Source of the DNA: Ginglymostoma cirratum
Lineage: Eukaryota
Length of the DNA stretch: 64,000 bases
Assembly (NCBI GenBank): GCA_024137785.1
Contig: JAHRHZ010000029.1
Span: 21,294,262-21,358,261 of the forward strand
Reading direction: 5' to 3'
Both the position numbers and the translations under genes were made by a program. Shown here piece after piece: positions 1,443 through 61,395 of the stretch. Below the pieces are notes generated by a model. That model saw nothing but the letters and a program-made list of their open reading frames with translations. It was not told the origin of the DNA and did no database searches. How positions within the stretch are numbered: the stretch's first letter is position 1; each line of letters begins with the position of its first letter.

Positions 1443-1561
1443 TAACACAGTGTGGAGCTGGAGGAACACAGCAGGCCAGGCAGCATCGGCGGAGCGGGAA
1501 AGTTGACGTTTCGGTTCGGGACCCTTCTTCAGATTCCAGCATTGGTAGTTCTTACTATCTC
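1443..1561. mobile_element. Short Penelope-like terminal-repeat insertion with internal inversion and hammerhead core
   Basis: 1443-1533 is a minus-strand copy (CTGAAGA-AGGGTCCCGAACC-GAAACGTC); 1534-1561 is the element 3' end on the plus strand. Flanked by the 14-bp direct repeat TCAGGTTGCTGTGA (1429-1442, 1562-1575). Confidence 0.75.
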
Positions 1562-17941: not shown

Positions 17942-20799
17942 TTTCGAACTGTTGTCAAGTTGCCTGCAGTCCTTTTACTGGCGGGATACTTCAAATGTAA
18001 TTTTAGGGGCAACCCGAAATTAGAATACTCAATGGAGATTATTTTGCTAGCTGACTGTCTGTAACAATCCTATAGCCGTTTGCCAATGAGTCATGTATCT
18101 TCATAACGAACTGATTTTGACCGAAACAAAAATCTATACCGACATTCAAATTTCTAGGCGGCTGTGTTTAGGTGGTAGCTTATAAATGACGGGAATAAGA
18201 GCGATCAGCGCTCAGAGCTCAGCGTCTCGTGTTTGAACGTCTTTTTAGCTAGTTTGCGGCACCAGGTCAGGACAAACTGTCCCGTGCATTCTGTTGTTGT
18301 TGTATACACTGTGATGTGTTCCACATTGTGTGGAACTGAATTCCGTTTGCATGCGTCTGATTTCAGACTATTTTGGGTGAAGGGGTCAAGTCTTTACTTT
18401 CGATTTTAAGCGGATCCAGTTGGCTGCTGCCGCTCTAACTTTTGCTCCCTTTCTAAGCCAAGCGTCAGAGTAAACTCACACTGGAATACTTCAGGTCAGA
18501 GCTGATTATAGGGTTGGGTGGCCGACAATTTTTTTTCCCTAAATAAACACAGCTTGATTCAACCTGGGTGGGCAAAACGGACCAATTTTTCACAAACGCT
18601 TTCGGAGAAGTGGGGTGGTGGGGGTTGGGGGGTGATGTTGTTCACTGGGGAGAAAGAAAACAAGACGGTACTGCTTGGGTACTCTGTGATCCTGAAACAG
18701 ATCAGCAGCCCTACACACTCTAAACGGTAACATAGGGAGCGTTGGCGGAGAGACCAACAAACTGCAACATGAGGTCAGGAGCGATCTGAATAAGCTGGAA
18801 ATTTATAAAGCCAGTCACAGCTATCAGCCAGATAGTTGGTACACCAGTCAGGCCAAAATGACCTATTTCAACAGCAATCCGCCTTTCTCCGAGTGTGAGG
18901 TAGATTTGGGAGGGGATGTGGGGTCAATAACGCCTATAAAGCACGCCCCGTTTGAAATAGCCTCAAGATCAGCTGTGAATGTCAATTCATGGCGTGAATA
19001 CGATGCCAAGATGCAGGTACTGAAGGTATGGACAAAAAAAAAAGAGATTGCCCAGTTTGTGGTCTCCCTTTGTCAGTTTTATGTGGGACGAGATGAAAAG
19101 TACAAATGTTAAAGATACATAATTTCCCCTTGCTTTGGCCTCCACTTGTCTAAGCTCAGATTGTATTTCAAGCCTCGATTCAAAGCCTTTTTTAACCTTC
19201 ATTTGCTTTTTAAAAAATCTGCCCTCATTTCTTTTCATTTATTCAAAATGCTCGAGGGTATAATTTTCAGATTGTCCCCACACCATCGAGAATAAGGGAT
19301 GACAGGCAGATTGCTGTTTTTTTTCTAGAAATATATTACAGTACCCCGGGAAAATTTCGATATCAGAAGTGAACCACTCGACTAGGCCATCTCTCCCCCA
19401 CACCCCTTATGTTATAGTTATTGAAATATAATATTTTGAAGTAGGGCCATAGGGAAGTCGACACTTTATTAAACCCAATTTTATCTTTCAGTTTCTTCGC
19501 AATACAAGGGGGAGGATGGGGGTGGTGAGAGAGTACAGTGAAGTATTTGCACAGATGCAGCAAAGGCTTATTCCGGAGTCTGGACGCAATATTACACTTT
19601 GAGCTACTTTGTTTTCATTGTCCTGTGAAACGGGGTGAGGAAATACTTAGAGCTAAAAACGCCACGAATTCACAGGTCAGGAAAGATAAGGATCACAAAG
19701 GTGTTGGCAGCCTCCTCTCCCACTCACTGCCTTTCCTGAGCACTTTACCAAAGCGACGCCAAAACAGGATCCCTAAAATTTCGAAACAATTGTCTGGAAG
19801 ATTTTGATGGGTTTCTCTGTTTTAGAATTTAACAAGCTGTAATCAATGTGACCGGTGCGGCGGTTCCTTGAGGCTGTTAGCTGGGTGAAGAAGTGGGACT
19901 CGAGAACTGTTGACTCTTCAAGCAAATTCTCTCAGGCTTTCTTCACATTTCCACCAAACCAGGAGCAAAAGTGAAACCATGTATTTCCCTCGTACCGAGT
20001 AAAAAAGAGCGCATATCCATCTGGTTGACCTGCTTGGACAGTGCTGAAAGTTTTCCGACAGTTTTAGGCATGTTTCTTAACTTAGTCATATATTGTACTG
20101 ATTGTGAACTCTTGCAAAGATAATGAGTTTAGAACAGTAAATGAGGTATATGTACACACACACAGAAAAACAGCCGATTGTAGTGATTAGGCATTTTGTT
20201 AATTACGATGGTGACACTTGATGACATATAACTCAATGTTGAGGCTGACGTTAGAAGTACACCGTGCTACCAATTGTACAAACCCACAGAATAACCGCAG
20301 TGTAGAATCAGTAGGGGTGGGGGCGGTGGGAAACGAGACTGAAAAATTGCAGTCACTATTGGAAACTGTCAGTTTAACCCCGTGAGAATTGCAGTAGCAG
20401 CCCTGGTCTGTATCAACAAATGCAATCGTTTAATTTTTCCCTTTCCTTGGGCAAGGTAATGCGAGCAGGGACCCAACCTGCCCGGAACTCCTCAATATCA
20501 AATTTAAATTGAGCTCGAAATCTCTGTTCTTTTAAAACGAATACGCTAATCAATAGTGGGAGTAGGCCTTTCGGCTGCTCCGCCATTCAATAAATTCGTG
20601 GCCGGTCGGAATTGTGGTCTAAGTTACACTTTCCCGCCTATCCCAAACACCCGAAGACTGTCCCGTTAGTCCAAAAAAAACTTTGTTGGAAACTGGAAGA
20701 ATCAGCCAGTACGCAAAGGTTCATTAGCCGAACTGAGTCATGAAGATCTCGGAGCTTCCGGTTTTATCCCCATCCCATCTCACCCCCATCAGAAAATGT

Positions 20800-20901
20800 T
20801 GAAACAAAAACAGAAATTGCTGGAAAAACTCAGCAGGTCTTGCAGCATCTTATGGAGAGAAATCGGAATTAACGTTTCAGGTCCAGCAACACTTCGGAAA
20901 A
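20800..20901 (-). mobile_element. Degenerate Penelope-like terminal repeat
   Basis: AAAACAGAAATTGCTGGAAAAACTCAGCAGGTCTTGCAGCATC...TTAACGTTTCAGGTCC, same family as the 55153 copy. Confidence 0.7.
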
Positions 20902-22604: not shown

Positions 22605-22739
22605 TCAGAGATAAAAGGTACTGCAGATGCTGGAGAATCCGAGATAACAAGCATGGGGCTGGATGAACACAGCAGGTCAAGCAGCATCATAGGAGCAGGA
22701 AAACTTGACGTTTCGGGCCTAAACCCTTCATCAGAAAAT
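22605..22739 (-). mobile_element. Young Penelope-like terminal repeat with intact minimal hammerhead core
   Basis: Reverse complement TTTCTGATGAAGGGTTTAGGCCCGAAACGTCAAG...; about 90 nt identical to 56942-57034. Flanked by GGTTTGTA (22597-22604, 22740-22747). Confidence 0.85.
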
Positions 22740-26634: not shown

Positions 26635-28380
26635 CTGGAGAAAGAAGAATCACAGGGTCAACGTCAAACGACACTACACTACTGTGTTTAACAGTGTTTG
26701 CATTTTTATAGATTATTACCGCTCCTTTAGCTAAAACCTCCACAAGGCGCTCGGGTAATCGAGCCCCGCGGCAGCGAAGAGTCTCTCTGGGATGTGGCAG
26801 GTTTAAGGTCAGGGGTAAGGTTGGGGTCGAGTCGCTGACAGGTACCACCCTGACTGAGTTCCCGCTGGCGTTCAAACTGACGGAGACGGTCGAATTTGTC
26901 GCCTTTATTTGGCCGAAGAAGTTAAGGCGCCCGAAAGACTGTTTATTAAATTAGATCATCTCTCTCTCTCCCCGGCACTGAATAGAATTGCTGCTACCTT
27001 AAACACCGCTTGGCATTTCATTGGTGTTCTCAATTTCGGAGACCGTCTGAGTTACTTGCTGCCAAATATTTGAGATTGAATTTTAAAAAAAAACTGCTTG
27101 ACAATCCAAATCTGCGAAAAAGTACCCTATGCCACTTTTTAAAAAAACAAAATTACACGGGCCAACAATAACTTTATTTTTAACAACACGCTTTTAAAAG
27201 AACTGAACCACGCATTTCTAACCGATTTATCCCCACACTCAAACTCCGCATTTACTGCCTTTCACTAAGCGCTAACCTTGAACTTGCCCGAAAAAAACAA
27301 TCCCCAACGGATTCTGTTGTATTTATACCAATAAACAAGGTAGCTACAGAATACTGGATGCATTTAATTAAAATTACGTCTGCATTTTCCTTTCAAGTTG
27401 AATTTGATGTTTTAACTAAATAATACACTCTTAATTCGGGCCACAATAATACTGGAGGTTAAACGGGCTCTTCAAAAATGTCAACTGATTTTCACCGCTG
27501 TGTTCTTAGTCCTGTATTTGCCAAAGGCGCCACTATTTGCAAAACGTGGTGTATTTTTTGAACAAATGTATTCAGAGACAAAAACCATCCAAGGACAATT
27601 AAATCAAATCCGCGAATTTCTCGGCTCCTGATCTGAATTCTTAACACTTTCGTTCCTTCTTTTTCATCCAGTATCGATTCACTTCTCCACCAAATTCTTT
27701 TACAACATTTCCTCTAGGCTGCCTCACATCAGAATCAGCACTAGCTGGTTGTTGTTGGCAGGAGAATCCAATGGAACATTACATTCATGTTGAACACTCT
27801 TTATCATTGAGGCAACTGATTCCAAACAGCACAATAACCAATAACTTGGCAGGTCCATGCTTAACTGAACTCATCTGTTATTCAAGTCCAAAGTACATGA
27901 TTGCTTTGGCATGTTTCTGACAGGTTGTCTTGGCTTCAGTTTTCAGTTTATGAAAGGGTCACTTCAGAGTATCAATGAATTACATACAGTTCACAGATAC
28001 AAAAAGACAATGGTATACTGTACCTCACCTCAAAGAGGATATAATACAAAGAGGCAGAAGTGATGCTTCAGTTTTGGTTATTCAGCCTTAGGCCACTGCT
28101 TCAATTCTGGCTGAAACGAGTCAGATTCTTTTTTGTTTTATTTATTAAGGAAATGAATGGGGATAGGCAGGAAAGTGGAGTTGGAGATATCAAATTGGCC
28201 ATGATCTCAACAAATGGCAAGTGGACTCAGTGGACGAAACAGCCTAAATCTGCTCCTATGTTTTCTGGTCTTATACTTCAGGATACTGAACATCAGAATG
28301 GATGTACTAGACTTGGGATCAACACGGTACTGAAAAACTAGATAACCAGCAATTATGAGGACTAGTTGCATAAACTACTC

Positions 28381-28510
28381 CTGAAGAAGAGTAGTGATGC
28401 AACTGAAATGTTAGCTGTTTTTCTCTTCACAGATGCTCAGGCCCTAGTGAGTTTCTCCAGCACTTTGTTTATATTTCAGATTCCCAAACACTACACTGCT
28501 TTTATTTGCA
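28381..28510 (+). mobile_element. Degenerate Penelope-like terminal repeat
   Basis: CTGAAGAAGAGT...ACTGAAATGTTA, then TTCTCTTCACAGATGCT...GAGTTTCTCCAGCACTTTG...TTTCAGATT. Confidence 0.65.
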
Positions 28511-31639: not shown

Positions 31640-31897
31640 GTAAAAACAAAAGTGCCGGAGAACATCAGCAGGCCTGGCAATATCCATGAAGAGAGAAACA
31701 GAATTACCATTTTGAGTCCATATGTCTCCTCATCACAACTGTAGCAGTTCTGGAGTTCTGAGTTCTGAAGAAAAATCATTCTAGACTCGAAACATTAATT
31801 CGGTTTCTCTCTCTACAAATACTGCCAGATATGCTGGGTTTCCCCATCACTTTCTATTTTTATTTCAGATTTCTAACATTTGCAGCATTTTGCTTTT
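31640..31897. mobile_element. Head-to-head inverted pair of Penelope-like terminal repeats
   Basis: Minus copy ~31640-31740 and plus copy ~31762-31897 (CTGAAGAAAAATCATTCTAGACTCGAAACATTA). Confidence 0.7.
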
Positions 31898-34674
31898 ATA
31901 TGCTCTGGGACAAGCTGTTCCAAGGTTTTACTTTTAGCAGACTGATGATAAGCAAATGTTACATTTTTAAAAGGTTGGCCATATTTAATGTACTTATTTT
32001 GAATAGAAAAATATTGGGAATGGGTGAACTCTAGAGCATCCTGCCCTATAATAACAATGGTTTTCTATTGCTAGCCAGGATTCCTGATTTTAGAAATGAG
32101 TGAAAAGTAAGTTTGCAGTGTGAAGGCCAAGAATGCATATTGGAAAAATGGGCAGCACTAAACTGGTTGCTGGAAAAATTCATCTCAAAAGATTAATTCA
32201 AGAGTGCACCAGGGTTTAATTTCAGCTACCTCATAACACAAGCTTAGTAATTATTCCAGGTGAGATAACGCTAAATCTTTTGTATATTTAAAGTATTTTT
32301 TTCTGTGGTACATGTCGAAGAAGTAAGTGTATTACATGCAGCTCACAATGGTGAATGCATGAGAACACTGCCTAAGCACCAGTGAATTAGTAACAATTCA
32401 GTACTGAAAATCCACATTTTACTTTTGGCTTTAGACAAATTTTTATTAAGACCAAATTTTGCTCTGAATATTCTGGTTCAATACTGATTCAATACCACTA
32501 CCATTTTTGATGTGTGTAAAATTATATTCGTTGCACTCTAACTGGAGACATAATTACGTGTTCTTAAATGCATACAAGTAACTTCCACTTAATATAAAAT
32601 TGCCAATATGTGAATTTATAAAGGAGCAAATGGAGTATAAAGGCATTTTTATCAGTACAAAACTAAATTGCATGCCTTGTATTGACTCAGTAGATTTGCA
32701 TAAAGAACCAGTCATGTTGAATAGGCATATCCCAGATTTACTCCTGTAGCTATGTTGACCACAGAAGGATTCATGGTAAGGATGCTTCTAATTAAATTCA
32801 GTGCTCCCATTTTAACTAGCAAGAAACTAACATTCCTGATTCTTACTGCCAATTATTGAACTTACAGTCAGTGAGCACATGAGAACAACAAACAAGCACA
32901 TCCATTGCGGTGCTCTGTGTGATCAAGTAACGAGCTTACATTCACACATGCATTAAGATCACTTGGGAAATGTGCAAGAAGGTGGTCAATGCCTGTGGAA
33001 CTATAACCTATTAAGAAGTGAATAGCTTAAGTGGAGGGATAGAGAAAAAAAACTGTGACCATGTACAAAATGAAAAATGGTTAAGTAGCTTTTAATGTTA
33101 AATTGCACTTTGTTTGGCGCAATATGCTACAAATGATGTGTGACACAAAAGGTGGCAAACCATAACATATAAATTTGGTTTGAATGTCAGCACAAAATAA
33201 GCAATCACCAAATGGTAGACTGTTTTACACTCAGCTCAATTTTCTTTTCCTTTGGCATCAATTGCAAAATGGCTTATCAACTTGCAGTCGCCAGTTTTGC
33301 AAGACTGCCCAAGATTAACTTGCACACGCTCCAAAGTTTGCGACCTTAACTTAGCTTTTTAAAATGTTTTTCGAGAGTTCCAGATGCAGGGTGACCATCA
33401 TTGGACGTTAAAACTTCCTGAATAATTTCTGCATATTTTAGTGCTTCATGACTCTTTGTAACATATCTTTCAGGGTATGCTGCTTCAATGACTAGCTTCG
33501 AATTGTAAGATCAGGGTCATTTTTCATATGCGTCTCAATGTTCGATTGGGTCTAAGACACATTTTATCTGCTATTCCTGAAGTCTTAATGTTTCAACTGG
33601 CCACAGCTTCAGAGCATGCAGAAGTTAATCATTTAATAAACCACAATTAATCAATGACAACTCTGCCTAGTGCTATCATTTCAGCGTAAGAACTCAAAAG
33701 ACGATGTTGCTGTTTGCATTTGCTTGAATACCTCAAACATGTAATGCATTAATATGTGCTGAGAAACCTCATTTAATTTCTAAAAGTATGCAACAATGAA
33801 TATTATGCATCACAAATGTCTAAGATCTTTGAAAAATACCTACACCGTGACTACTTATTATTTCAGATGCAATTATTTCCACAGGGAACTATAATAAATC
33901 ACAAGAGAAAGTAACTATGCAAATATTACACAAAATGCAATGCAGATACCCAGTGAAATAGCTGAAATAACAGACAGTCTTTTAAACATACAAAATTATC
34001 AGTAACATTTCTGATATATAAATATTTAAGATGACAAAGCTATTAGCATACAATATCACAAATTTGAACTTTACAACCTCATAGCAACATTCACAATGAC
34101 ACATCAAGATGGAACAACCTCTCCCCAGAAGATATTGTCGACCTCTGGTAGCTGGTTCAAGAGTTACCAGTTAATCGTCTTGTAAAGGTTCCTCTGCCTA
34201 CACCTCAGCCTGGACCATTGCAGAGCAGAGGTGGACTGCAGGAGAGGATCCCAAAAGGATAGAAACAAAAAAGACAAAGGTGATTTTTAAGAATGTTTAT
34301 TTAGTTAGCTCTACAAAGAACTGTTCACAAATTATATTCTACATTAAAGTAGCAATTTCAAACATTGAATTGACAGTTTATATATTTTGATAAAATTATT
34401 GAAAAGCTGAAAGATTTTTTGTGTTACCCTACAGTTTAATACTCAGATTAAACTCATCAAAAATGCATGTGGAATATATGATGACATTTGCTCTGATCTG
34501 TTTTCTCACTAGTTACAGCCTGTGGCAGTGATTTCAATATTAAAAGAGCAGCTGTATGCAAAAGAGTTTTGGTCTTTTTGATGTTGATTCAAAACTTTTA
34601 AAATAATTAAAATTCCCAGGAATTCTCGCATCAACTGCTAAATTTAAAAATGATAAAATACTGCAGATGCTTGT

Positions 34675-43205: not shown

Positions 43206-46007
43206 ATACTAGTAGAAAGGAAATGTTGTGGGGAGCCTTTAATTTGATTGGAACAATCAAATTGGTAAAAGTGGTCTAGAAGATGAGTTCATAGAATGGT
43301 GTTGTGATAATTTCTTGGAGCAGTATGAATGGAACTAACTGGGGATAAAACTATGTTAGATCTAGTATTATGAGATGAGGTAGGGTTAATTAATAAAAGT
43401 AGTAGAATGACAGTAAAAGATCCATTGGGAAATTGTTATCATGATTCAGTTGAATTCCAAATATTGGAATTGATGAATTCCAAACACAAACAAGAATTTT
43501 CACAGCTTAAAAAAAGCAAATTGCATAGTAATGAGATGAGCATCTACTAAGGTTGATTGAGTAAATAGACAAAAAAAAAGGCAGCAAATAAAATAACTCA
43601 AAGCATAAAGAAACAATCCAAAACATTCAAAAACAGAAGCTCAATGCAAAAGATCTATCTATGGTTCACTATGAAGGTCAGGGACAGTATTTAATTAAAA
43701 GAAGACATTGTAGTGGAAATAATACTTCTGATGCTCCCTGACTTGTCTTGTTAACCAATTTAATGGTACAATGTTAGAATTTGTGAGACTGTCATATCAA
43801 GAATTTCTGATGGTTGTGCTCATTTAATTTGTATAATGTGTAGTGGAGCATTCATATAAAAAAAAGTCCTGAGTGTGATTCTAGTGCCACTGGCTACTCC
43901 TTCCTATGGCATGTGAGTTGGGAGTCAATGGCATTTTACCAGCTGCTGGTCTTAGTGAATCTGATGATTTAACAGTGGGATTGCTGTTATCAGTAGTATC
44001 ACAATGTGGTGACACTAGCACAGTGTAAAATCAATAGGAATCAATATTAGTGAGTTAAATAGTCCTAGTGCATGCACTAAACCTGCCTTTTTTAATATTC
44101 CTAATTCATAGTTTCTTTGTCAGCCATAGTTTGGTTCTTTTCAAATTTATTATTGCCCATCCAGGCTTGAGATCAGTTAAATGTTACCTTTAGTTGATAC
44201 CTTGGTGCACAAAAGCATCCCAGGGTGATCAACTTTGCTTGGCATGCACAGTCAAGAAGAAAATTTCAGTGTGGGAAATTGTGGGTTTGGAATTCCACCT
44301 TGCCACTCTGAGGTGCAGTGTTTTGGAACTGTTAGAACATTGCATCATGCTGCAGAGACTTTGGGTGAGAATAGAAGCGTTCTCAGCTGTGATGTTCTGG
44401 AGTCAAATAGCCTGCCGGCACTCAATGTCTAGACTCTTACATACTTGGCTAAGGTACTGGAGGGCAACGAATGTCTTAGAGCCATACACTAGCAAGAATC
44501 AGTGCCTTCAGGAGAGGAGGGAAGAAACGTAGAAGAGGAAAAATATACACATATGGACAGTATTGCGAAAACGTTTAGAAAACTGAGGTTTACTTATATC
44601 TGTTGGCATTACGCCATTGACTATATCTGTTGCCACTATGCATTAATGCCACAAATATTGTAACATTCAGACTAAGTTGAAACAGATATGTGAACGGAAA
44701 TATACATCAATCAAACTAATTGCCCAAGTCTGAAAAAAACTGTTAGATTACAAATGTTATTCAAACTTTTGCCTCAAGAATTTTGCGCTATTGTTTTTGG
44801 TGTACACTTTTGGCACACTGTGGTGGCCTGCTGTCCAAGGCTGCAATCCTATCATGCTATCATTTTGATTTTCATGATATCTTATTCCTTAATATTTAGA
44901 CACTTCATTCCTTAAGCTCTAGTTCAAGGAGTTGGACCAAATGGTCTGTTTCCATGCTGTACAGCTCTATGATTCTATGAATAATGCATTCGACTGAAAC
45001 CTAAAAATAATTAGTTTATCAATTACTTTTCACAAGCAGTGCTAATTGTCACTATTAAAGGATTAACATGAAAATTAACACTGGTTCTTCAGTGCAATTT
45101 ACTTAAGCTTTCAATCAAGAAGATTAAAAAATATTTTTGTCAGTTTGTGCTCTCCATCAAGGTGTTAGTGTTAGCATTGGCATCCAGGATCAGAAGCTAG
45201 CACTCTCATGTCAGATGTAGCAGACATAAAATTCTGGAACTACAACAGAAGGGGATCACTTACACTGAAAGTTTTATACAGTAGTTTCCATTTTTCTGAC
45301 ACTTGGCATTCATTTTTTACATTTTTAATTTTAAAAATGTATTCAACCACTCTCCTTTTCAAAACTGTTACCTATTCTTTTTAAAATCCACCACTTCTCT
45401 TCATACTTCCTAATATGTTCTTTTTGATCTCAGCATCCATTTCTGTCTGATTATGCCTCTATGAAGTGCCTTGGGATATTGGTCTATGTTAAAAGTGCGT
45501 CATAATTATGGGTCATTGTTGCTTCCACCACTGTTTATGGTATGTCCTATCATATCTCTGTTGAAAAAAATCTTCTAACCTCCTCATTTTTTTTGACAAT
45601 GGTCTTCAGTTTATTCTTTTTAGCTTCGAACCCATTGGCCAGTGGAAATAGTTTGTCCCTAACTATCCTTCAATATTTTGAGGATTTCTGCTGTATCACT
45701 CTTAAATTTATCCGTTCTAGTTCTGCAAAGTATTTACTTAATTTATTTTCATACTGACAAACTTTATCATAACAAATTGGTTCTGATTCCTCTCTCTGAT
45801 CTTGATATCCTTTCCAGAGTGCCCAAAACTGGCCAAATCTTTTCTTAACTGTGAATTTACTAATGGTAAGTTTTAGCATAAAGCCTTTTACTTTTGTACT
45901 ATATGGCATTATTTAAAAAGTTTATTCAACACTGAAGTAAGGGTGACAGTTAACCAAATTGTCTCTTTTTCTCTCTAGAACAGATAACTTGCATTAATAA
46001 CTTCTTG

Positions 46008-46137
46008 GAGATAGTAGGAACTGCCGATGCTGGAGAATCTGAGATAAAACATTGTGGAGCTGGATAAACACAGCAGGCCAAGCAGCATCAGAGGAGCAGG
46101 AAAGCTGACGTTTCGGGTCGAGACCCTTCTTCAGAAA
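46008..46137 (-). mobile_element. Penelope-like terminal repeat with intact minimal hammerhead core
   Basis: Reverse complement CTGAAGA-A-GGGT-CTCG-ACCC-GAAA-CG-TC (46134-46107). Flanked by TAATAACTTCT (45995-46005, 46153-46163). Confidence 0.85.
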
Positions 46138-47069
46138 AAGAAGTAATAACTATAATAACTTCTCATTTCCCAATGCAACATCAGTATGATTGAAAGATGT
46201 CAGAAACCGAAACTGTTCGCTTTCAGATCATCTTCAGATGTGGTCAGGGTGCAGTTTTTCTTCCAGTTGGAGTTTAACCAATCCATCGTTAAGAACTATA
46301 TACCAATAGTTATCTACAGCCGAAAGGACAACCTCAGTCTACTCTGTTCTAAAAACGTATTGTAAAAACAGTAACTGCAGCAAATACTCAACAATTCTGG
46401 CAGCAACTGTGGAGACAGAAATGGAAGGCTGGATAATATATTGCCAGCAGGATGCATATTCAGCAGGCATTACATAAATAGGACAGGTGCCAGCTGATCA
46501 CCTTGTAACCCACCCTCCAGCTCATCCCTATTATAGATGGGTGCTGAAATTGCCCACCAGATGCACGTAAATAATTAAAGGTCACATGAGCTTGTTTAAT
46601 GTCAACTGACCTCAATATTATTCTGTTCATGTCATGAAATGGTTGCATGTGCAACCAATGGCAGTGGATTTTTTTTTAAAGTGTGAAAAAGAAGGGGGTT
46701 ATCATCTTTGGGGGGGGTCCCTTTGTGCATCAGGCTTAACCCCCAATTCCCCACAGAAGAAAATAGCTCCTTCTTTCCTTACCTATCAACCATTTAGAAA
46801 CTTTGAAATTCATTAAACCCTCCTAGCCCAATGCCCTTATTCACCTAGGTCCAGGATCCCATTGGGCCTTCATCCTTGAACTGGTTGCAGTGTCGGAAGA
46901 TTGGCTGATAGTTCCAGAGGGGAAGATGTCCACTCACTGATTGAACTCCTAAATATGCACTAATTTAGCATGCCCACAGCCTGATATGGCTCAAAGTCTG
47001 GAGATTGGCCATCAAACTTCCTCCACCAACTTCTGTACACTTGTGTTCAGTGTAAAGAGTTCAAGTCCT

Positions 47070-47173
47070 ATTCTCTCCACGGATGTGGCCAGACCTGCTG
47101 AGTTTTACCAGCATTTCATGTTATAATTTCAGATTTCCAGCATCAGCAGTATTTCCAGCAGTATTTTGCTTTT
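47070..47173 (+). mobile_element. Penelope-like terminal repeat fragment
   Basis: TTCTCTCCACGGATGTGGCCAGACCTGCTGAGTTTTACCAGCATT...TTTCAGATTTCCAGCATC. Confidence 0.7.
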
Positions 47174-47639
47174 ATCCAAACAATACGCTTTCATTTCAGA
47201 TTGGGGAATCAACCACCTTTACAGTGGTGCAAGTTTTCCATTTCCCATTAAATGTCAAACTAAGGGCATTTTTATGCTGTGGTTTGTGACAAATAATGAT
47301 TCACTTCCCATACCGCCCTTACAATCAGTAAAGGAAGGAAACTTTCATCCCATTTCAGCATGAACTAAATTTAAATGGAGATCACAGAGGTGAGAGAATT
47401 GAGGTTAGCCCCAATCAAACTGACGTAATTTGTTCTGTTGACTTCCAAAATAATTATTGAATTAAATGATTTCATAGACCAATAACGATCTCTGTTAGAA
47501 ACCATGCTGCTGATTTTACCAATTGCACAATAGTTCTTGTGAATAGGTGCAGTGTTCTTCCGTGAGGTCCCAGACTCCCAACAAAGTAAGTTTGTGTTAA
47601 GCTATTTAATACAGGCAGAAATTTATAACATTTCTACAT

Positions 47640-48195
47640 CAAAATAAAAGTAGAAAATTCTTGCTAACACTATACAAGGCAGAACAGCTAGAATATTGTG
47701 AATATTTTGGTCCCCTTATCAAAGAAAAGGTATACTGGCATTGGAGGCAGTTTAGAGAAAGTTCACTTGGTTGATCTGAGTATGGATGGATTTTCATATG
47801 AGGAGAGCTTGAGTAGGTTGGGCTTGTATCCATTGGAGTTTAAAAGAATGAGAGGTGACTTTACTGAAACATTTAAGATTCATAGGGGATTTGACAGGAT
47901 TGATGTGGAAATGTTGTTTCCTGTTGTAAGACAGTCTAAGGGCACAGGACATACCCTTAGAATGACGGTTCACCCATTTAATGCAGAAATTAGGAGGAAT
48001 TTTCTCAGTGTGGTGAAAAGTGTATTCAAAGATGACAGAGGCAGATTTTTAATCAGTAGGTGAATCAAGGGTTATGGGGATAAGGCAATAAAGTGGAGTT
48101 GTGGATTATCAGATTGGCCATGATCTTATTGACCACCAGAGCAGACTTAATGGGGCGATGGCCTATTCAATTGCTTCATCTTATGGTCTTATCTT
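47640..48195 (+). mobile_element. CR1 LINE 3' fragment
   Basis: MDGFSYEESLSRLGLYPLEFKRMRGDFTETFKIHRGFDRIDVEMLFP plus CR1 3' UTR. Confidence 0.88.
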
Positions 48196-49619: not shown

Positions 49620-50520
49620 AGTTGTTGTTGTAATAGATTAAGTGAATGTGGAAGATCTAGCAAATGAACATGGAATATAGGCAAATGGGAGGTCATCTTA
49701 CCTAAACGGGATTGATCAGAATACTTTCTAAATGGTGAAAAGCCACAAGTGGATGTCAAAAGAAACTTAGGTTTCCATGTGAATAGGTTATTCAAAAATC
49801 ATGCAAAGGTACAAAAATAAATCAAACATGTTAAGGCAGTGCTGGTCTTTATATCTCTGGGACTTGAACGTAAGAGAGTAGAAAGTCCTGCTGGAGCTAT
49901 ACAGGGCATAGCTAGACAACACCTGGTGGTACTGTGTTCAATTCTAGGCACTACACGTGAGAAAGAAAAGCAGAAATTGCTGGAAAAGCTCAGCATCTGT
50001 GGAGAGAAATCAGAGTTAACATTTCGGGTCGAGTGTCCTTTCCTGGGGAAGGATTCATTGGTCAGTGCAGTAGATACATTAGAACAATGCCTGAACTAAA
50101 TGGTTAAACTATAAGTAGTAAAGTTATATTTGCTGGAATTTAGAATATCAAGACATGATTTGAATAAAATTTTCAAGGTATCGAGAAAAATTGAAAGCAT
50201 AGATAGAAAGAAACTGTTTCCTCTGGCCGGGGAGTGTAGGTTTCAGGGACATAGCCTAAAAATTAAAGCTAGGTCTTTTAGAAATGCAGTTAGGAAATGC
50301 CTCCACATATGTGGTAGACGTTAAGAACGCTCTTTTGCAAATAGTAATTAATTCTGCATTAATCATAAATTTTCCATCTGAGACTGATAGATTTATATTT
50401 AATAAAATTATTAAGATATGTGGGACTAAAACAGCTAAGCAGTTCGGTTGCACATCAACCATAATCTCATTGACTAGGGAAACAGGCTCAAGGAGCTAAG
50501 GTGCTAACTCCTTTTCATTT
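49620..50520 (+). mobile_element. Old CR1 LINE with a nested Penelope repeat (~49960-50045, minus)
   Basis: LEFRISRHDLNKIFKVSRKIESIDRKKLFPLAGECRFQGHSLKI. A further Penelope repeat lies at ~50560-50645. Confidence 0.75.
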
Positions 50521-50741
50521 AGAATATGAAGAGATTAAGGAATTAAGCATTAAGACGAGTAAAAACTGAAAATGCTGGAAATAGCATCTGTGGAGAGAGA
50601 TATAGAGTTAACAATTCACACATGATAGCTTTTCATCGGAACAGTTCTTAAGCAGTTAGGAATACTTCACAGTGATGTTCAAAATCATGAAGGGTTTTGA
50701 CAGAGTAAACAAGAGAAACTGTGCAGTGGCAGAAGGGTTGG

Positions 50742-51268
50742 TTCTGGTCTCTTTGCTAGACGAAGGATGTTGTGAACCTTGAAAAGATCCAGAAAAGATT
50801 TACAAGGATGTTGCCAGAGTTGGAGGGTTTGAGCTATAGGGAGAGGCTGAATAGGCTTGGGCTATTTTCCTTGGAGCGTTCGAGGCTGAGGGGTGACCTT
50901 ATTGAGGTTTATCAAATCATGAGGGGCATGGATAGGGTGAATAGCCAAGGTCTTTTCCCCAGGGTAGGGGAGTGCAAAATTAGAGGGAATAGGTATAATC
51001 TGAGAGGGAAAAAATTTTTAAAGAGAACAAAGGAGCAACTATTTCATGCAGAGGGTGGTGAGTGTATGGACTGAGCTGCCAGGCAAAATCATGGAGGCTG
51101 GTACAATTACAACATTGAAAAGGCATCTGGATGGATACTTGAATAGGAAGGGTTTACAGGGATGTGGACCAAATGCTGGCAAATCGGACTAGATTAATTT
51201 AAGATATCTAGTCAGCATGGAAGGTTTGGACTGAAGGATCTATTTCCATGCTGTGTAAGTCTATGACT
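50742..51268 (+). mobile_element. Younger CR1/HER1 LINE 3' end
   Basis: LEKIQKRFTRMLPELEGLSYRERLNRLGLFSLERSRLRGDLIEVYQIMRGMDRVNSQGLFPRVGE; tail ending CTATGACT. Nested in an older CR1 (~50670-51545). Confidence 0.92.
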
Positions 51269-53174: not shown

Positions 53175-54920
53175 AACAGTCTTAACAGAGCAGAATGAGG
53201 CCATTCAGCCCAAAATGTCTGCGCTGATCAACAAACATCTCATATTACAGTTTTTCGCGACAGCCATGCAAGCTGTGGCCGCACAAGTAAGTATCCGAGT
53301 ACTGCTTAACTGTCATGAGAGTTTCTGATTCAACCACTCTTTCAGGTTGTGAGTTCCAGATTCTTCACCACACTCTCAGAGTGAAAATGACTCTTTTCAA
53401 AATTTCTGCTAGCCGTCTACCTTTTACTTTAAGTCTGTGCTCTCTGGTTATCGATCCTTCTACCAATAGAAAAAGTGCCTTCCCAACCACCCTATCTATG
53501 TCCCTCATAATTGTAAGCACCCCAGTCAGATCCCTTCTCAACCTTTGTTGCTGTAAGGAAAATAACCCAGCCTATCCAAATCTTTTCTTATTACTCAGAC
53601 CTTCCAGTCGTTCTGGATCTTTTCCAGTGTAATCACATCCTTCCTGTAACATGGACAAGACCAAACTCCCTCAAAATATCTTCAGCAGATGGTCTATATC
53701 CTAACTTCTACTTATTTTAAAGGTAAATGTAAGGCATTGTGTTCCAGATGCAATTCAATTGGTCAAACTACTCGACATTAAGCAAAACACACTTTACTTT
53801 AACACTACAGTTAAAGCACAGACAAAATAAAAAGAAAAAGAAAGAACCGGCTTAACTGTAACTCTGTCGAAATGCTTAACAAAATAACATATATATTGAC
53901 TACTACTAATTAAGTGTTCCAGTACAGTAACATCCTATAAACATTCCATTGGCAAAGGCAAATACAGTAAAATGGATTTGTCTCACAAGCAATTCTAGCA
54001 ACAGGAAGAGAACCCCAGCTTTGAGCTATGACAGAGAGAAGAATAAGAGTTTCCACATTCAGTTTCAAAACCCCAGCTACTACAGAAAGCTAAAATTAAA
54101 AATCTTAGTTCATTGGGAGCTTGAGCCCAACCATTCTGGCTGCTTCTATTGTTCTAACTTTAGCCTCACAAGCTGTTTATGCTATGGCTTTGAGCAGACT
54201 GCTTGGCGCCTCTGTCTCGACCTTCCTTCATTAAAAAAGGACCTCTTAAAGCCATAGTATTGTTACAAATGTGGTGACTAGAACTGCACACAGTACTCCA
54301 GTTGTGGTCTAACCAGCATTTTATAGAGTTCCAGCATAATGTCCTTAAATGCAAGTATCTCATATTTCTTCTTAGCCACATTATTGATCTGCCTGTTACC
54401 TTCAGGGATCTGATGATATGCATACATAGGTCCTCCTGATCTTCAGTACTTTCCAGGGTCCTATCCTTTATGTTGGAAACTCTTGTCTTGTTAGCTGTCT
54501 CCAAGTAATTACTTCTTTCTTTTCCAGGTTAAATTCCATTGCATGTCTTCTCCCCCTAGCGTTCATTGATTGCCTTATGCAGTTTACAGCTATTCTCCTC
54601 ACAATTTACCAGCTGACCAATAGTCATGTCATCCAGGAGCTTCTCAAACATACCACCTACATTTAAGTTCAAATCGTTAATGTATACCACAAAAAGCTAG
54701 GGCCCCAGCACTGAGGCTTCATAACTGGAAAAAGACTTCCAGTCACAGAAACGTCCCTCTGCTATTATCCTCTGCTTCCTGCCTCTTACTTTCTTCAGCA
54801 GACTGCCATGAGGAAATTTGTCAAAAGCTTTGCTCAAGTCAATGTCAACCGCAACAAATGCATTACCCTCAGAAACATTCCTCAAACCAGTTGACTAAAT
54901 TTGTCAAAAATGACCTCTTA
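53175..54920 (-). mobile_element. CR1 LINE RT/3' fragment split by an LTR-like insertion
   Basis: RT motif VDIDLSKAFDKFPHGSLLKKV...SVLGP at ~54700-54860; 3' end at ~53175-53644. Confidence 0.85.
53645..54267. mobile_element. Probable solo LTR (623 bp)
   Basis: Inverted termini TGTAACA...TGTTACA; cleanly interrupts the CR1 sequence ACATCCTTCC|AATGTGGTGACTAGAACTGCAC. Confidence 0.65.
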
Positions 54921-55150: not shown

Positions 55151-55267
55151 GTACAGAAACAGAAGTTGCTGGAAAAGCTCAGCAAGTCTGGCAGCATCTG
55201 TGAAGAAAATATCAGAGTTAACGTTTCAGGTCCAGTGACCTTTCCTCAAAACCTGTCTGTTTTCACT
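55151..55267 (-). mobile_element. Penelope-like terminal repeat with 15-bp TSD
   Basis: Reverse complement (T)TGAGGA-A-AGGTC-ACTG-GACCT-GAAA-CG-TT; TSD TGTCCTTTAAGTCTT (55136-55150, 55268-55282). Another degenerate plus copy lies at ~55454-55583. Confidence 0.8.
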
Positions 55268-56251
55268 TGTCCTTTAAGTCTTTCCTTTCTTAAAGGGAAG
55301 ACCTAAACTTTTCAACCTTTCCTGATTGCTGTAATCTCTTCAGTTCTTGAGCCACTCTTGTGAATATTTTATGCACTTTCTCTTGTACTTCTATGACATT
55401 TTTAACATATGGAGATTTGATTCGGTTTCCTACATTTAGGATTTCCTTGAGTCCTGATGAAAGGTCATCTGTCTGAATTGTTAACCCTATTTCTTTACAT
55501 GGCTGCTGCTTGATCTGCTGGTCATTTGCAGCTAGCTTTTGTTCTCGTTTTAAGTTTCCAGCATCTGCCATTTTGCGCTTTTGTACGAAGATTTTTTCTC
55601 TCTTTTTACTCATAGTTGACTAATGAATTTGTACTGTGGCAAGAAATAACATAAGGGTCAAAGTTGTTCATTTGCGGGTGTTTTGGGTTTAATATGTCTG
55701 AAAACAATTTAGCCAATTGCGCTGTTCAGCTTTTCCTAAAAAATGCGCAAGAATTGATTCGTAAGTTCTCGTGCACGCACAAATAAATATTTCAGCAATA
55801 GAAAATACCAGAGACACACTATTCACAACTTTTTGTGCTATGTTGTGAATTCACCTATTGTTTATCCAACATTAAATAGGCTTTGTCAGCTTAAAGAGAC
55901 ACACATCTATGCTTTAGCAGCAGGAAAACAGATGGAGGATGTTTATAAACACCTGAGACAAGCTAATGAAATTCTCATTTGAAAAGGTTTGATACCAATT
56001 TGGGGAAATGGAAACTTCACAGCAATGCTAGGAAGTCTACCTATGTATCCAGGTCATAGCTGAATTTTAAGCCCTTCATTAAATGGCTGCGGATTTTGTA
56101 CAGCTTAGGTTTTTACAAAACACCACATCACCAAATCACAGAATTGTTACGATGCAAGAGGCTTGTTTGGCCCATTATGAATGCACCAGATTACTGAATG
56201 ATCCTTGTGACTCAGTGCCATTCTCCCGCTTTTTCCCCATAACCCTAAACA

Positions 56252-57033
56252 GTGCTACACCTGCCCCCACACCTCCTCCCTCACCCCAATCCCAGGCCCC
56301 AAGAAGACTTTCCACATCAGGCAGATGTTCACCTGCACATCTGCCAATGTGGTATACTGCATCCACTGTACCCATTGTGGCTTCCTCTACATCGGGGAAA
56401 CCAAGCGGAGGCTTGGGGACCGCTTTGCAGAACACCTGCGCTCAGTTCGCAACAAACAACTGCACCTCCCAGTCGCGAACCATTTCAACTCCCCCTCCCA
56501 TTCTTCAGATGACATGTCCATCCTGGGCCTCCTGCAATGCCAGTGATGCCACCCAAAGGCTGCAGGAACAGCAAATCATATTCAGCCTGGGAACCCTGCA
56601 GCCCAATGGCATCAATGTGGATTTCACAAGCTTCAAAATCTCCCCTCCCCCAACCGCATCCCAAAACCAGCCCAGCTCATCTCCTCCTCCCTAAACTGTT
56701 TTTCCTCCCACCTCAAGCCCCACCACCATCTCCTATCTACTAACATCATCCCGCGCCCTTGTCCGTCCTCCCTGGACTGACCTATCTCCTCCCTACCCCC
56801 CTACCTACACTCACCTTTACTGGCTCCATCCCCGCCTCTTCGACTTGTCTGCCTCCTCTCCACCTATCCTCTCCTCTATCTATCCTCTATCCACCTCCCC
56901 CTCTCTCCCTATTTATTTCAGAACCCTCTTCCCCTCCCCCATTTCTGATGAAGGGTTTAGGCCCGAAACGTCAAGTTTTCCTGCTCCTATGATGCTGCTT
57001 GACCTGCTGTGTTCATCCAGCCCCATGCTTGTT
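56252..57033 (+). mobile_element. 5'-truncated Penelope-like element (Neptune-like), GIY-YIG endonuclease remnant plus terminal repeat
   Basis: FTCTSANVVYCIHCTHCGFLYIGETKRRLGDRFAEHLRS...PVANHFNSPSH, frameshift near 56540, then RLQEQQIIFSLGTLQPNGINVDF. Pyrimidine-rich 3' region. TSD ACCCTAAACA (56242-56251, 57034-57043). Confidence 0.92.
56941..56976 (+). ncRNA. Minimal type I hammerhead ribozyme motif
   Basis: AUUU-CUGAUGA-A-GGG-UUUAGG-CCC-GAAA-CG-UC^AAGU: full catalytic core, 3-bp stem II, 4-bp stem I, palindromic ACGU in place of stem III. Confidence 0.75.
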
Positions 57034-57805
57034 ACCCTAAACACTGTCGCTGTTTAAATAATCATCTAATGTTATCTTCATTGTCTTGATTAAAATTTGC
57101 TTCATCACACTTCCAGGCAGTGCATTCCAAACTTGAACCATTCACAGCATGAACAAGTATTTTGTCACATCACTTTCACTTCTTCCAAAAACTACCTTAT
57201 GTCTGTGCACTTTTGTTCTCAATCCGTTTATGAGCGGAATCAGTTTCTTCTCCATCTATTCTGTTTAAACGCCTTATTATTTTGAAAACGTCAACTTCTC
57301 TTAGCCTTTTCTGCTCGAAGCAACCTTTCCAATCTATCTTCATAACTAAAGTTTCTCAACCTTCAAACCATTCTTGCAATTCCCTTGAGCACTCTATCCA
57401 GGCATTCATCCTTCCTAAACTGTGGTGCTCAGGATTGGATACAATACACCAGCTGAGGTCTAACTCATGTAATATAAAATTCAGCATAACCTCCTTGCTT
57501 TTGTAGTCTTATACATTAATTAATAAAACCTATGATACTGTATGCTTTATTGACTGTTCTCTGCCTGTCCTTCCAGCTTTAATGCTTTATGCACATTCTT
57601 TTCCCACATCTTTCTGATTCTGTATCCCTTTAGGGTACTGCCCTTTGTTTTATGCTGTATTTTCACGTCCTTTCAACTAAAACATATCACTTCACACTTC
57701 TCTGCATTGAATTTCATCTGCCACCTACCTGCATACTCTTTTTTGAAGTTGGTACACTGCCTTCCTCACATTTTACATTATCTAACTTCCCATAAACAAT
57801 GCTAC

Positions 57806-58261: not shown

Positions 58262-58600
58262 CAGAGACACAGTGGCTTTGTGGTTATAACACTGGACTAG
58301 TAATCCAGTGGCTCACGTTGACGCTCTGGGGACAAAGGTTACATTCCCACCATAGCGGCTATTCAAATTTAAATTCAATTCATAAAATCTGGAACATAAT
58401 GGTAGTCTCAGTAATTTGGTTGTTGTAAAAACCCATCTGGTTTACTAATGTCCTTTAAGGGAATTAATCTGCCATCCTTACCTGGTCTGGCGTACATCTG
58501 ATAAACTAATTCTTATCTGCCTCTGAAATGACCTTGAAAGCTGTTCAGTTCAAGAACAACTGGGGACTGGAAACAAGTACTGGCCTGAACAGCATGTCTT
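58262..58600 (+). mobile_element. tRNA-derived SINE (49168/60655 family)
   Basis: CACTGGACTAGTAATCCAG...TTGTTGTAAAAACCCATCTGGTTTACTAATGTCCTTTAAGGG...CCTTACCTGGTCTGG. Confidence 0.7.
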
Positions 58601-60654
58601 TTGATTAAACACTGAAATAAGTAATGTAGCATAACCACACAAGTGAATATCAAACCATCATTTCTCAGTCATTCGTCTCTTGAGATCTCCCATAGCCACC
58701 AAGCTCAGAGCTCCCAACTCAGTACAATTCAATGCCTCTGTACCTAATTAAAACCTATTGCATATATTTTCCAGTAGAGATGAAAGATAAATTTATTTTG
58801 TTTCTCTCTCTGCTGATTCTTCCTGACCAGCTGAGAATTTCCCGCATTTTCTGTTTTAAAAAAAATTGCTAAATACAATAGTCTAATTCTGTCAGAAGTT
58901 AGGATTACCCTTGCTGGTATTACCACACAATTACAAACCATAGAAACCTCACTAGTTCTGACACATCCTCAGACATGGCAGTGCTTCATAGTCCAGTACT
59001 GTCTCCATGCCTCTGACTCCTGTAAACATTCTATCTAATTGCTTCCAGATTTTGGCACATCCTCACCATGTTTCTTGACCCCAAAGCACCCACTCAGGGC
59101 TACTAAACTTGAGCAGTTCTAATGTCAGTACTTATTGATACCCAGGATTCTCCCAGACCATGACAGCTCTCTGCAGTAACCCCAACCCCCAGAGTGACAG
59201 ATCCCATATCCTCCTCCTGTCCCGGTTTTTAAGGGAAATAAACGATGAGTTTATAGACCCTTCACTCGCAATCATCTACAGCTCTCTTGATTCAGGACTT
59301 TACATTGGAAGATTTTAAATGTTGTTCCATTACTTTAAAGACGAGAGAGGGGGGACAAAAATCAAGAAATTTAGATCAATTGATTTAACATCTCTTGTGG
59401 GAAGTGATTGGAATCTATAATTAAAGACAAAGTCACTGAGTACTTGATGGTATTTGAGCTGAAGAGTGATAGCAATACAGATTTGTACAGGTTAAATCAT
59501 ATCTAACAAATCTAATTAAGATTTTTAAGGACACAACTAAATTAACAGACAGGAAAATGGGTATAGATACAGTTTATATGCAAGGGGCTTTGTGGTGCAT
59601 TGATAGTGTCTCTACCTCTAAGCCAGTAGGCTTGGGTTCAAGTCCCACTTGCTCCAGAGATGTATACTAACATCTGAAACCCATATGGCTTTGAACACCC
59701 CTTAACCATCTCTATCTCTGCTCTGAGGAGAACAATCTCAGATTCCCTAGTCACTCCACATAACTGAAATTCCACATTCCTTGTTACCATTCTACCAAAT
59801 CTGTTCAATCTTGTAATTTTTCAAATTCTGTTCCATGGAAAAAATGCCAAAACATTAGAACCATGATTAATTAGAACTATGATTAGATATATTATTAGTG
59901 GTATTCTTGAGCTATCCTGTGAAATTTGATCAACTACACACTCGATAGGTTCAGTGGAACCTTTCTGGCTGACATTTGGCTTGGGTTCCACTCGCGGGCA
60001 CAGTTAGTAAAGGCTCCAGAATGCCAGAAACAACCTGGAGGGGATTGATTGTCTTCCCAGACAATACAGTGGTTCCATTGTAAGCTGCAAGTCTGAATCT
60101 GCTCTACTGCCTTGAGCCCCATCTGTGCTGTGTTAGCATGGCAAGAAGTCACTCTGATATTTTAGGTCTCAGATGGAGTAGCTGCTGCTGATACATTTTT
60201 GCCTGCTCCAACCATGGGAACAATCCTGTTATTTCCACTACGCTTGGATTCCACAATTACATAAGTGCTGGCAGAACAACTTAACTGGAATTTCACCCAC
60301 AAATTCTTCATGCAGTTTTCAGATCAATCTACAGAACAGTGATAGATTTTTCTGCTACTGATATGAATCCTTCTGTGAATAATGGCTGAAAAAAACCCCA
60401 GTTTTTTGAGTGTGGCAAACAATCTTTTGTCCCTGAACCAAATTTTGATTTAGAAAAATATTTTCCCTCCAGCCCTTTATACAAATGTGATTTAAAATAT
60501 GACAATATTCCATCTGCTCCTGCTTGTCCATTCACGATCAACCCTGTATTTTAAAGATGTCCGTTTCAGTTATTGCATTTTGTGCCTAATTAGTCTTCAG
60601 AAAAACCTTTCAGAATACACAAATTTTTGAACTGCTATAGTATGTCTCCAAGTA

Positions 60655-61395
60655 GGGAAGGTGGTTGCAAAGTGGTAATCTCACTGGACTAATAATCCAG
60701 AACCCAGTCCAATATCTTGCGGACAGGGGTTCAAATTCCATCATGGTAAGTGGCAAAATCCTTTATTCATTCACAGGATGAGGGCATTGCTGGCTAGGCA
60801 GCATTTACTGCCCATCCCTAATTGCCTGGAGGGCAGTTAAGAGTCAACCACATTGCTGGTCTACATCATCGGTCTAGAGTCATGTGTAGGTCAGACCAGG
60901 TAGGGATGGCAGTTTCCTTCCCTAAAGGACATTAGTAAACTAGATGGGTCTTTCCAGCAATCAACAATGGATTCATGGTCATCATTAGACTCTTAATTCA
61001 AGATACTTATTGAGTTCAAATTCCACCATCCGCCTTGGCAAAATTCGAGCCCGGGTTCACAGAACATTATCTGGGTCTCTGGATTAACAGTCCAGCGGTA
61101 ATACCAATACCAGTAGGCCAATTTAGAATAAGAAAAATTTGGAGCCATTAGCTAGCTAATGGCAACCATGTCGATTGTTGTAAAAACCCATCTGGTTCAC
61201 AAATATCTTTTATAGAAGGAGATTTTCTGTCTTGTCTTTACCTAGTCTGGCTTATGTGACTCCAGACCCATAGTAATGTGGTTGGTTCTTAACGGCCCTC
61301 TGAAATGGCCTAGCAAACCATTCAGTTCAAGGGCAACTAAGGATAAGCAACAAATGCTGGTCTTGTCAGAGGTGCCCATACATGAATAAAAAGAA
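60655..61395. mobile_element. SINE (plus) with a nested inverted copy of the same family (minus, ~60762-61105)
   Basis: Plus head at 60655-60760 resumes at ~61120-61395. The internal minus copy starts TTTATTCATTCACAGGATGAGGGCATTGCTGGCTAGG. Confidence 0.75.

Follow-up and report, generated by a model that had tools for sequence, protein, structure and literature searches.

We analysed 64,000 nucleotides of the Ginglymostoma cirratum assembly GCA_024137785.1 (contig JAHRHZ010000029.1, positions 21,294,262 to 21,358,261 of the forward strand; this whole stretch is called the window), which contain a truncated Penelope-like element (PLE) with an endonuclease-coding sequence and a hammerhead ribozyme motif, together with 14 dispersed solo copies of the hammerhead-bearing repeat. 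All counts below come from this one window and its n = 14 insertion events. Hammerhead coordinates are counted with C3 of CUGA as +1.

The long copy and its hammerhead motif

The copy at 56252-57033 (the long copy) is a 5′-truncated, frameshifted PLE of the zinc-finger-linker (Neptune/Nematis) type. Its features are:

56242..56251 (+): left target-site duplication (TSD), 10 bp, p = 0.009
56253..56694 (+): C-terminal part of the PLE open reading frame (ORF), with the last CxxC of the linker and a GIY-YIG endonuclease with CCHH motif (Pfam PF01541, protein identity)
56695..56940 (+): pyrimidine-rich 3′ untranslated region (UTR) or upstream part of the pseudo-long terminal repeat (pseudo-LTR), 79% C+T, with a similar stretch in protein P0003
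56910..56916 (+): TATA-like TATTTAT, whose first base is 31 nt upstream of the A at 56941; no other A/T run of ≥ 6 nt occurs in the UTR
56939..56945 (+): initiator (Inr)-like YYANWYY, with its A at 56941 (−4) as the first base of helix I; candidate transcription start
56941..56976 (+): minimal type-I hammerhead motif, from the sequence (helix I of 4 bp, CUGAUGA, helix II of 4 bp, GAAAC, stem III, GUC)
56977..57033 (+): leader 3′ of the ribozyme, to the tail-less 3′ end (+89) set by the flanking repeat
57034..57043 (+): right TSD, 10 bp, p = 0.009

A perfect 10-bp direct repeat flanks the 782 nt of the long copy; its p-value was scored against 3000 random flank pairs. The GIY-YIG domain was recognised by Pfam (E = 9.6e−5), and the ORF is broken by a single frameshift at 56541-56544. 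The closest named relatives of the encoded protein were whale shark and zebra shark proteins: with the frameshift read as X, 136/147 residues (93%) are identical to the C-terminus of whale-shark P0002, which comprises the C-terminal half of a reverse transcriptase (RT) and an endonuclease (EN) with a complete C-X4-C-X2-C linker between them. Relatives of P0002, 800-950 aa long and 45-50% identical, align across all of it. The translation of the long copy contains the CCHH motif, two cysteines of which lie between GIY and YIG, and the catalytic R, H, E and N, of which E and N are encoded past the frameshift. A CX2-5CxxC linker and a CCHH motif characterise Neptune/Nematis-type PLEs and exclude Penelope/Poseidon (PMC8557442). 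As the long copy begins at the last CxxC and P0002 has the C-X4-C-X2-C, Poseidon is excluded, while Nematis shares the linker; the only PLEs of vertebrates are said to be Neptune and Poseidon (bioRxiv 10.64898/2026.07.22.740005). In zebra-shark P0003, RT, EN, a similar UTR and the hammerhead sequence follow each other in one reading frame, so the RT-EN-UTR-ribozyme order is shared.

The original prediction had described 56242..57043 as a PLE joining an endonuclease C-terminus to a hammerhead repeat, and both points were borne out by the GIY-YIG match, the CCHH motif, the linker CxxC, the identity to an RT+EN protein and the 10-bp TSD. It had proposed a search for full-length RT plus GIY-YIG partners; P0002, with half of the RT, and its 800-950-aa relatives are proteins of this kind. 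In the window, no RT-coding sequence and no full-length pseudo-LTR-ORF-pseudo-LTR copy is present, the long copy holds the EN part only, and tblastn with 8 PLE proteins matched nothing beyond the long copy.

CUGAUGA starts at 56945 and GUC lies at 56970-56972, as had been predicted, and helix II is preceded by one extra base and closed by a G-C pair. Also as predicted, the hammerhead is minimal with a palindromic stem III: this is a loop-less ACGU in 4/4 copies of the younger of two families described below (family A), so helix III can form only between two copies. Judged by its sequence, 56941-56976 is a minimal hammerhead ribozyme (min-HHR) motif as in PMC4209133. CUGANGA, GAAA and NUH are all intact in 5/12 copies which have the core region, the long copy included. 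Among the 4 family-A copies checked, the long copy alone has full helix I and II pairing, helix I being incomplete in 3/3 family-A solos. Rfam models scanned over the whole window matched no hammerhead at E ≤ 1; a single snoRNA match at E = 1 was put down to chance. None of five stretches folded as single strands was more stable than its shuffles (z −0.2 to −0.9), and the dimer hammerhead fold reached −5.1 kcal/mol compared with a predicted cofold minimum of −28.8 kcal/mol. Across 11 copies, 74% of helix I/II cells were paired versus 18-43% in slid registers, and three helix II pairs were changed on both sides, with 37/500 column shuffles equalling the pairing. The missing Rfam match, the shuffle-level folds, a covariation that some shuffles equal and the distance of the dimer fold from the minimum speak against an active RNA. 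For published PLE hammerheads, weak cleavage or a need for protein has been reported (PMC4209133, PMC11167929), and a hammerhead-dimer paper by Lunse is cited in the review PMC6765202. The AUG within CUGAUGA opens a frame of only 14 codons in the young family-A copies.

Solo copies, their families and their ends

Solos were searched for over the whole window with an iterated nhmmer profile, keeping copies at E ≤ 4.2e−7 and leaving out two matches at E 0.65 and 0.83; the top match in the reversed window, used as a control, had E 3.8. This gave 15 copies per 64 kb, comprising the long copy, all 13 solos of the original prediction and one further copy at 46.4 kb. The insertions other than the long copy are:

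1443..1561 (−): family-A solo, tail-less, ends at +90, inverted tail at the 5′ end (1529-1561); 14-bp TSD, p = 0.001
20799..20900 (−): family-B solo, tail-less, core partly deleted, without clear TSD; profile match, approximate ends
22605..22739 (−): family-A solo, tailed, −5 to +130; 8-bp repeat at both junctions, p = 0.09
28377..28510 (+): family-B solo, probably tailed, without significant TSD; profile match, approximate ends
31641..31899: family-B insertion of two head-to-head arms, (−) arm tail-less (+96) and (+) arm tailed (+135); one 15-bp TSD, p = 0.0035
46006..46152 (−): family-A solo, tailed, ends at +129, 5′ filler partly repeating the target site; 11-bp TSD, p = 0.004
46361..46425 (−): family-B fragment starting at ~+28, absent from the original prediction; E 4e−9
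47060..47175 (+): family-B tailed copy without catalytic core, starting near the scission position; profile match, approximate ends
49962..50050 (−): family-B solo, tail-less, decayed core, 12-nt internal deletion; profile match, approximate ends
50560..50644 (−): family-B solo, tail-less, internal deletion; profile match, 7-bp repeat, p = 0.32
55151..55267 (−): family-B solo, tail-less, ends at +99; 15-bp TSD, p = 0.001
55450..55583 (+): family-B solo, tailed, decayed GAAA; profile match, approximate ends
58776..58858 (+): family-B decayed copy, tail-less, 5′ end uncertain (possible helix II deletion); profile match

All copies are related, as a single repeat family would have it, but they fall into two families, A and B, which are 47-66% identical to each other. 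Family A (1.5, 22.7, 46.1 and 56.9 kb; n = 4) is 79-100% identical within itself; family B is older and has 11 copies, the 8 compared being 54-76% identical, and leave-one-out profiles regained 11/11 of them at E ≤ 1.1e−8. The two solos previously counted at 31.6 kb are one insertion under a shared 15-bp TSD. Over 93 nt, the 22.7-kb solo is 100% identical to the ORF-bearing long copy (22645-22737 vs 56942-57034) and is therefore not a separate lineage. The two are identical at a distance of 34 kb although the long copy is already frameshifted; the identity could mean that the subfamily is very young, that both came from one local source or that gene conversion has taken place. For family B, tblastn found no ORF-bearing copy in the window, and a peptide search matched 2/6 candidates, neither of them a PLE ORF. 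In a protein search with the translated 3′ UTR and ribozyme, 0/28 candidates scored.

Shared sequence is lost within ~6 nt upstream of C3 in 11/15 copies; one copy extends 693 nt and three are shorter or unclear. The pyrimidine-rich upstream sequence of the long copy was found in none of these 11 boundary copies (0.35-0.61 versus 0.85). Truncation at a constant hazard gave P ≤ 5e−10 (window post hoc, lengths rounded), so simple random truncation, which would have told against the original prediction, is rejected, and its observation that most repeats begin a few nucleotides from the CUGA core stands. Among the solos, 11/14 start ~30 nt upstream of the cut, two near it and one unclearly. A ribozyme product cleaved after GUC would have its 5′ end at +29, which is not where the common boundary lies (−4). 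The 47.1 and 46.4 kb copies lack the catalytic core and begin at ~+28 to +38, with uncertain boundaries; they are possible footprints of cleaved templates.

Upstream of the boundary, TATTTAT had a shuffle p of 0.003, with the pattern chosen post hoc, and it is followed by a match to the Inr consensus YYANWYY. The TATA-like motif was absent from the 60-nt upstream flank of 11/11 solos checked. In P0003, P-I-Y stands nine codons before L-M-K-G, at a distance to the core of 27 nt versus 28 nt in the window. PLE transcription is described as starting in the pseudo-LTR (PMC2377424, PMC8557442). We also considered a leader spliced via the CAG at −23 and rejected it, as the 22 nt expected after such a splice are missing from the three family-A solos.

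TSDs were significant (p < 0.01) at 5/14 events (10, 11, 14, 15 and 15 bp). At 22.7 kb an 8-bp repeat sits exactly at both junctions with p = 0.09, at 50.6 kb a 7-bp repeat has p = 0.32, and no TSD was found at 7/14 events. The earlier statement that several copies have TSDs of 8-15 bp is thus borne out, the 8-bp case at 22.7 kb being less certain. Where repeats fix the 3′ end, family A stops at +89 and +90 or at +129 and +130, and family B at +96 and +99 or at +135, giving two classes ~40 nt apart. PLEs have an optional 30-40-bp tail at the 3′ end (PMC8557442, PMC3846280). For the Anolis element, RT is described as starting at either of two internal sites, which bound this tail, and as copying RNA that has not been cleaved, with cutting and extension of both target strands (PMC11167929). 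The 3′-end classes match the optional tail, and so PLE ends without and with the tail account for the sizes of ~100 and ~135 bp. Despite their 93-nt identity, the 22.7-kb solo has the tailed 3′ end and the long copy the tail-less one.

Two insertions are composite. At 1.5 kb, a tail-less copy is joined through a shared CTGA to an inverted tail (p = 0.004; seen in 1/15 copies tested), all within the 14-bp TSD. At 31.7 kb, the two arms lie within a 15-bp TSD with one mismatch (31626-31640, 31900-31914), and their junction (31737-31771) contains a 5-bp palindrome with a 3-nt loop and AGTTCTG three times consecutively. Both arms begin at −5/−4, the tripled unit being the 7 nt from −4; it occurs 10 times in the window, three of them at this junction. 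The triple stutter fits RT re-priming at a template end, and it resembles repeat addition at a template end by a telomerase-related RT. At both 1.5 and 31.7 kb, one piece ending at the first site is paired with one ending at the second, which would follow if priming on the two nicked strands had used different RT start sites. Such inverted 5′ partners, tailed at one end only, belong to the standard anatomy of PLEs (PMC8557442, PMC3846280), for which PMC3846280 proposes instead self-priming on an antisense template. The neighbours at 55.2 and 55.5 kb are also head-to-head; they were tried as one event and rejected, as they share no TSD (p = 0.46) and the 55.2-kb copy has its own.

Possible origin of the solo copies

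The reading that we lean towards, by a modest degree, is that the solos are run-off cDNAs of the PLE mRNA leader made by the element's own RT, and not an independent mobile RNA. A TATA/Inr-type promoter in the pseudo-LTR would set the mRNA 5′ end ~4 nt before CUGA, and target-primed reverse transcription would start ~90 or ~130 nt inside the leader and run off the RNA 5′ end. The solos would lose the upstream TATA-like motif and be mostly dead on arrival, and ORF-bearing copies would come from read-through transcripts primed on their downstream pseudo-LTR. If both nicked strands were primed, one per start site, the inverted-tail and head-to-head insertions would result. A number of points weigh against this account. 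Its start site is inferred from one long copy and one junction; the TATA-like motif is post hoc, comes from that copy and has a second possible reading, as part of a splice-acceptor-like tract with CAG at its end. YYANWYY is a degenerate pattern that the UTR matches three times, and helix I also constrains the A at −4. The Drosophila Penelope promoter is internal and TATA-less (PMC2377424), and with an internal promoter here the solos would keep their promoter. The window has no ORF-bearing family-B copy to show the upstream sequence of B, 18-29 nt of filler or inverted sequence hides the exact 5′ end at 1.5, 46.1 and 55.2 kb, and the sample is 14 events from one window.

The strongest competitor, itself unlikely, is that the solos are ordinary 5′-truncated PLEs from read-through RNA, on which RT pauses just beyond the ribozyme fold or at the C-rich tract immediately upstream (G-rich in the cDNA), making the boundary a pause site instead of an RNA end. 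The filler and microhomology at the junctions are typical of truncation, and PMC4209133 takes single min-HHRs genome-wide as probably truncated PLEs; however, the folds are no more stable than shuffles, a stall would be expected at the 3′ side of a helix and not after the helix has been copied, and the triple stutter of the first 7 nt better suits a template end. Less plausible again is a unit resembling a short interspersed element (SINE), 95-135 nt long, propagating itself from an internal promoter and mobilised in trans by PLE protein. Such a unit would have a fixed 5′ end and its own TSDs, as seen here along with 14 solos to one ORF-bearing copy, and the case is strongest for family B, which is without an ORF partner in the window. 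There is also precedent in that rotifer pseudo-LTR sequences suffice for mobilisation in trans (PMC3846280), the Drosophila Penelope promoter is internal (PMC2377424) and non-autonomous PLE derivatives have been described (PMC8557442; bioRxiv 10.64898/2026.07.22.740005). Against it stand the identity of the 22.7-kb solo with the ORF-bearing copy and the incomplete helix I of the family-A solos; furthermore, no upstream leader is common to any two solos, the 4/66 high-scoring pairs being inverted neighbours.

The original prediction favoured a discrete, non-autonomous, retrozyme-like unit, and this interpretation fared badly. Tandem arrangement defines animal retrozymes (PMC7229834; bioRxiv 10.64898/2026.07.22.740005), but we found no head-to-tail array in the window (0/9 TRF rows overlap a copy; the neighbours at 31.7 and 55.2/55.5 kb are head-to-head), the 5′ end is the wrong one, the 22.7-kb solo equals the ORF-bearing copy, the sizes are those of PLE tails, the junctions carry PLE marks of inversion and filler, and most cores are decayed. 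We consider very improbable a retrozyme proper, in which self-cleaved circular RNAs undergo rolling reverse transcription, even though non-LTR retrozymes tied to PLE pseudo-LTRs have been reported in one chondrichthyan (bioRxiv 10.64898/2026.07.22.740005) and the 47.1 and 46.4 kb copies begin near the scission position. At least 11/14 solos begin before the cut and run on for 60-100 nt beyond it, which a cleavage-to-cleavage monomer would not, and the hammerhead is minimal with a dimer fold far above the cofold minimum.

One further reading concerns the reverse transcription step itself. In retroviruses, minus-strand strong-stop DNA is a short cDNA primed near the RNA 5′ end, where it runs off. 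It is conceivable, although to our minds more doubtful than a pausing RT or a self-propagating unit, that Penelope replication includes a strand-transfer step like that of retroviruses and that the solos are its strong-stop cDNAs, integrated into the genome. An mRNA start at −4 and a 3′ hammerhead cut at +28 would leave both ends sharing a 32-nt R-like segment, and the palindromic hammerhead dimer would hold the RNA ends together. RT would prime at +90/+130 and run off the cap, and would then stop (the 14 solos), stutter (31.7 kb) or jump to the cleaved 3′ end and on into the ORF (the long copy). The analogy does not place the two in the same class, the shark case being target-primed, without a tRNA primer or RNase H. 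Were this reading true, PLE hammerheads would gain a role, and pseudo-LTR regeneration, left open in PMC2377424, would be explained. Counting against it, no Anolis RNA-seq reads start or end at the cut, and cleavage is dispensable in vitro (PMC11167929).

Known systems and neighbouring features

The shark copies closely resemble the EN+ Neptune/Nematis PLEs of PMC8557442 in the C-terminal GIY-YIG with CCHH, the CX2-5CxxC linker (complete in P0002), the pseudo-LTR hammerhead, heavy 5′ truncation, the optional 30-40-bp tail, an inverted 5′-truncated partner and variable TSDs (here 10-15 bp). There was no structural difference, save that the long copy is without RT; the accessible discussion of EN+ PLEs in that paper does not include a sharp 5′ boundary of solos. 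Like Poseidon_Ac (PAc) of Anolis (PMC11167929), the shark element has two 3′ ends past the hammerhead that bound the tail, an uncleaved ribozyme copied whole into DNA and an AUG inside CUGAUGA. In contrast, Poseidon has no linker zinc finger whereas the shark element does, and in PAc RT starts within the ORF, at an AC-rich stem-loop 111-118 nt from its beginning, whereas the shark ends lie at ~+90/+130 in U-rich sequence. With the min-HHRs of metazoan PLEs (PMC4209133) the shark motif shares the loop-less palindromic helix III, the 4-bp helix I, the extra base between 9 and 10.1, the G10.1-C11.1 pair in family A and, in other vertebrates, thousands of single copies per genome. It differs in helix II (7-8 bp in min-HHRs, 4-5 bp in shark copies) and in the GUU triplet of family B, and sharks are not named among the hosts in the accessible text of PMC4209133. 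Non-LTR retrozymes (PMC7229834; bioRxiv 10.64898/2026.07.22.740005) are likewise short, non-coding type-I hammerhead repeats with pseudo-LTR kinship, dispersed monomers and TSDs > 4 bp, but they comprise tandem units with at least two ribozymes and circular RNA, while the shark copies are without tandems and end at probable PLE RT start sites, not at the cleavage site.

PLE hammerheads, tails, inverted ends and abundant solos are already published, and what is added here is only the proposal that the sharp 5′ end marks a run-off. Single min-HHRs, numbering thousands in a vertebrate genome, have been taken as truncated PLEs (PMC4209133), retrozymes derived from pseudo-LTRs are reported in a chondrichthyan (bioRxiv 10.64898/2026.07.22.740005), and Penelope is listed for the whale shark (PMC8455134) and in all vertebrate lineages (PMC4350176). 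The chondrichthyan retrozyme families of that preprint may already include families A and B. The accessible text of PMC6155905 has nothing on shark PLEs, and in literature that covered few subscription papers and no Repbase or Dfam, we found neither an account of how shark PLE solos end nor one that reads those ends as start sites. If the 5′ ends do represent the PLE start and the 3′ ends two RT start sites, the shark copies would map a Neptune-type template to the base, and the head-to-head insertions would lend genomic support to the priming of both target strands at different RNA sites. The hammerhead role and the origin of the pseudo-LTR would then become two questions testable from assemblies alone. 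It should also be noted that a fixed 5′ end with a TSD is no proof of a non-autonomous element.

A leader-tail helix, GAUGCUG/CAGCAUC, is possible in both families (e.g. 22605-22700, −). In the consensus fold of six tailed leaders, 2/16 pairs show two-sided change and the covariation term is unfavourable; as a lead only, this helix is a candidate RT-binding or initiation structure. In the predicted Chiloscyllium plagiosum GLE1 isoform X2 (P0249), 16 residues at ~104-120 are identical to the family-B leader translation (E = 1.0). The match starts at a pyrimidine tract followed by CAG, which suggests exonisation of a family-B repeat via a built-in splice acceptor.

Elsewhere in the window, a single-exon forkhead gene (10397-11830, +; Pfam Forkhead, E 3e−40), which we take to be FOXC-like, has a minisatellite upstream of it (8189-8410; 41-bp unit, ~4-5 copies). 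The interval from 1.6 to 20.7 kb, ~9 kb either side of this gene, is free of hammerhead copies. Four ORF pieces (34674-35078, −; 47692-48063; 50760-51074; 54166-54528, −) resemble the 3′ ends of CR1/L2-type long interspersed elements; a Pfam scan of three of the four gave no match, and the pieces at 34.7-35.0 and 50.8-51.1 kb are 73-83% alike. A further dispersed repeat lies in both orientations at 58416-58586 and 60799-61363, with relatives at 43.1 and 49.3-49.5 kb, and is probably a shark SINE.

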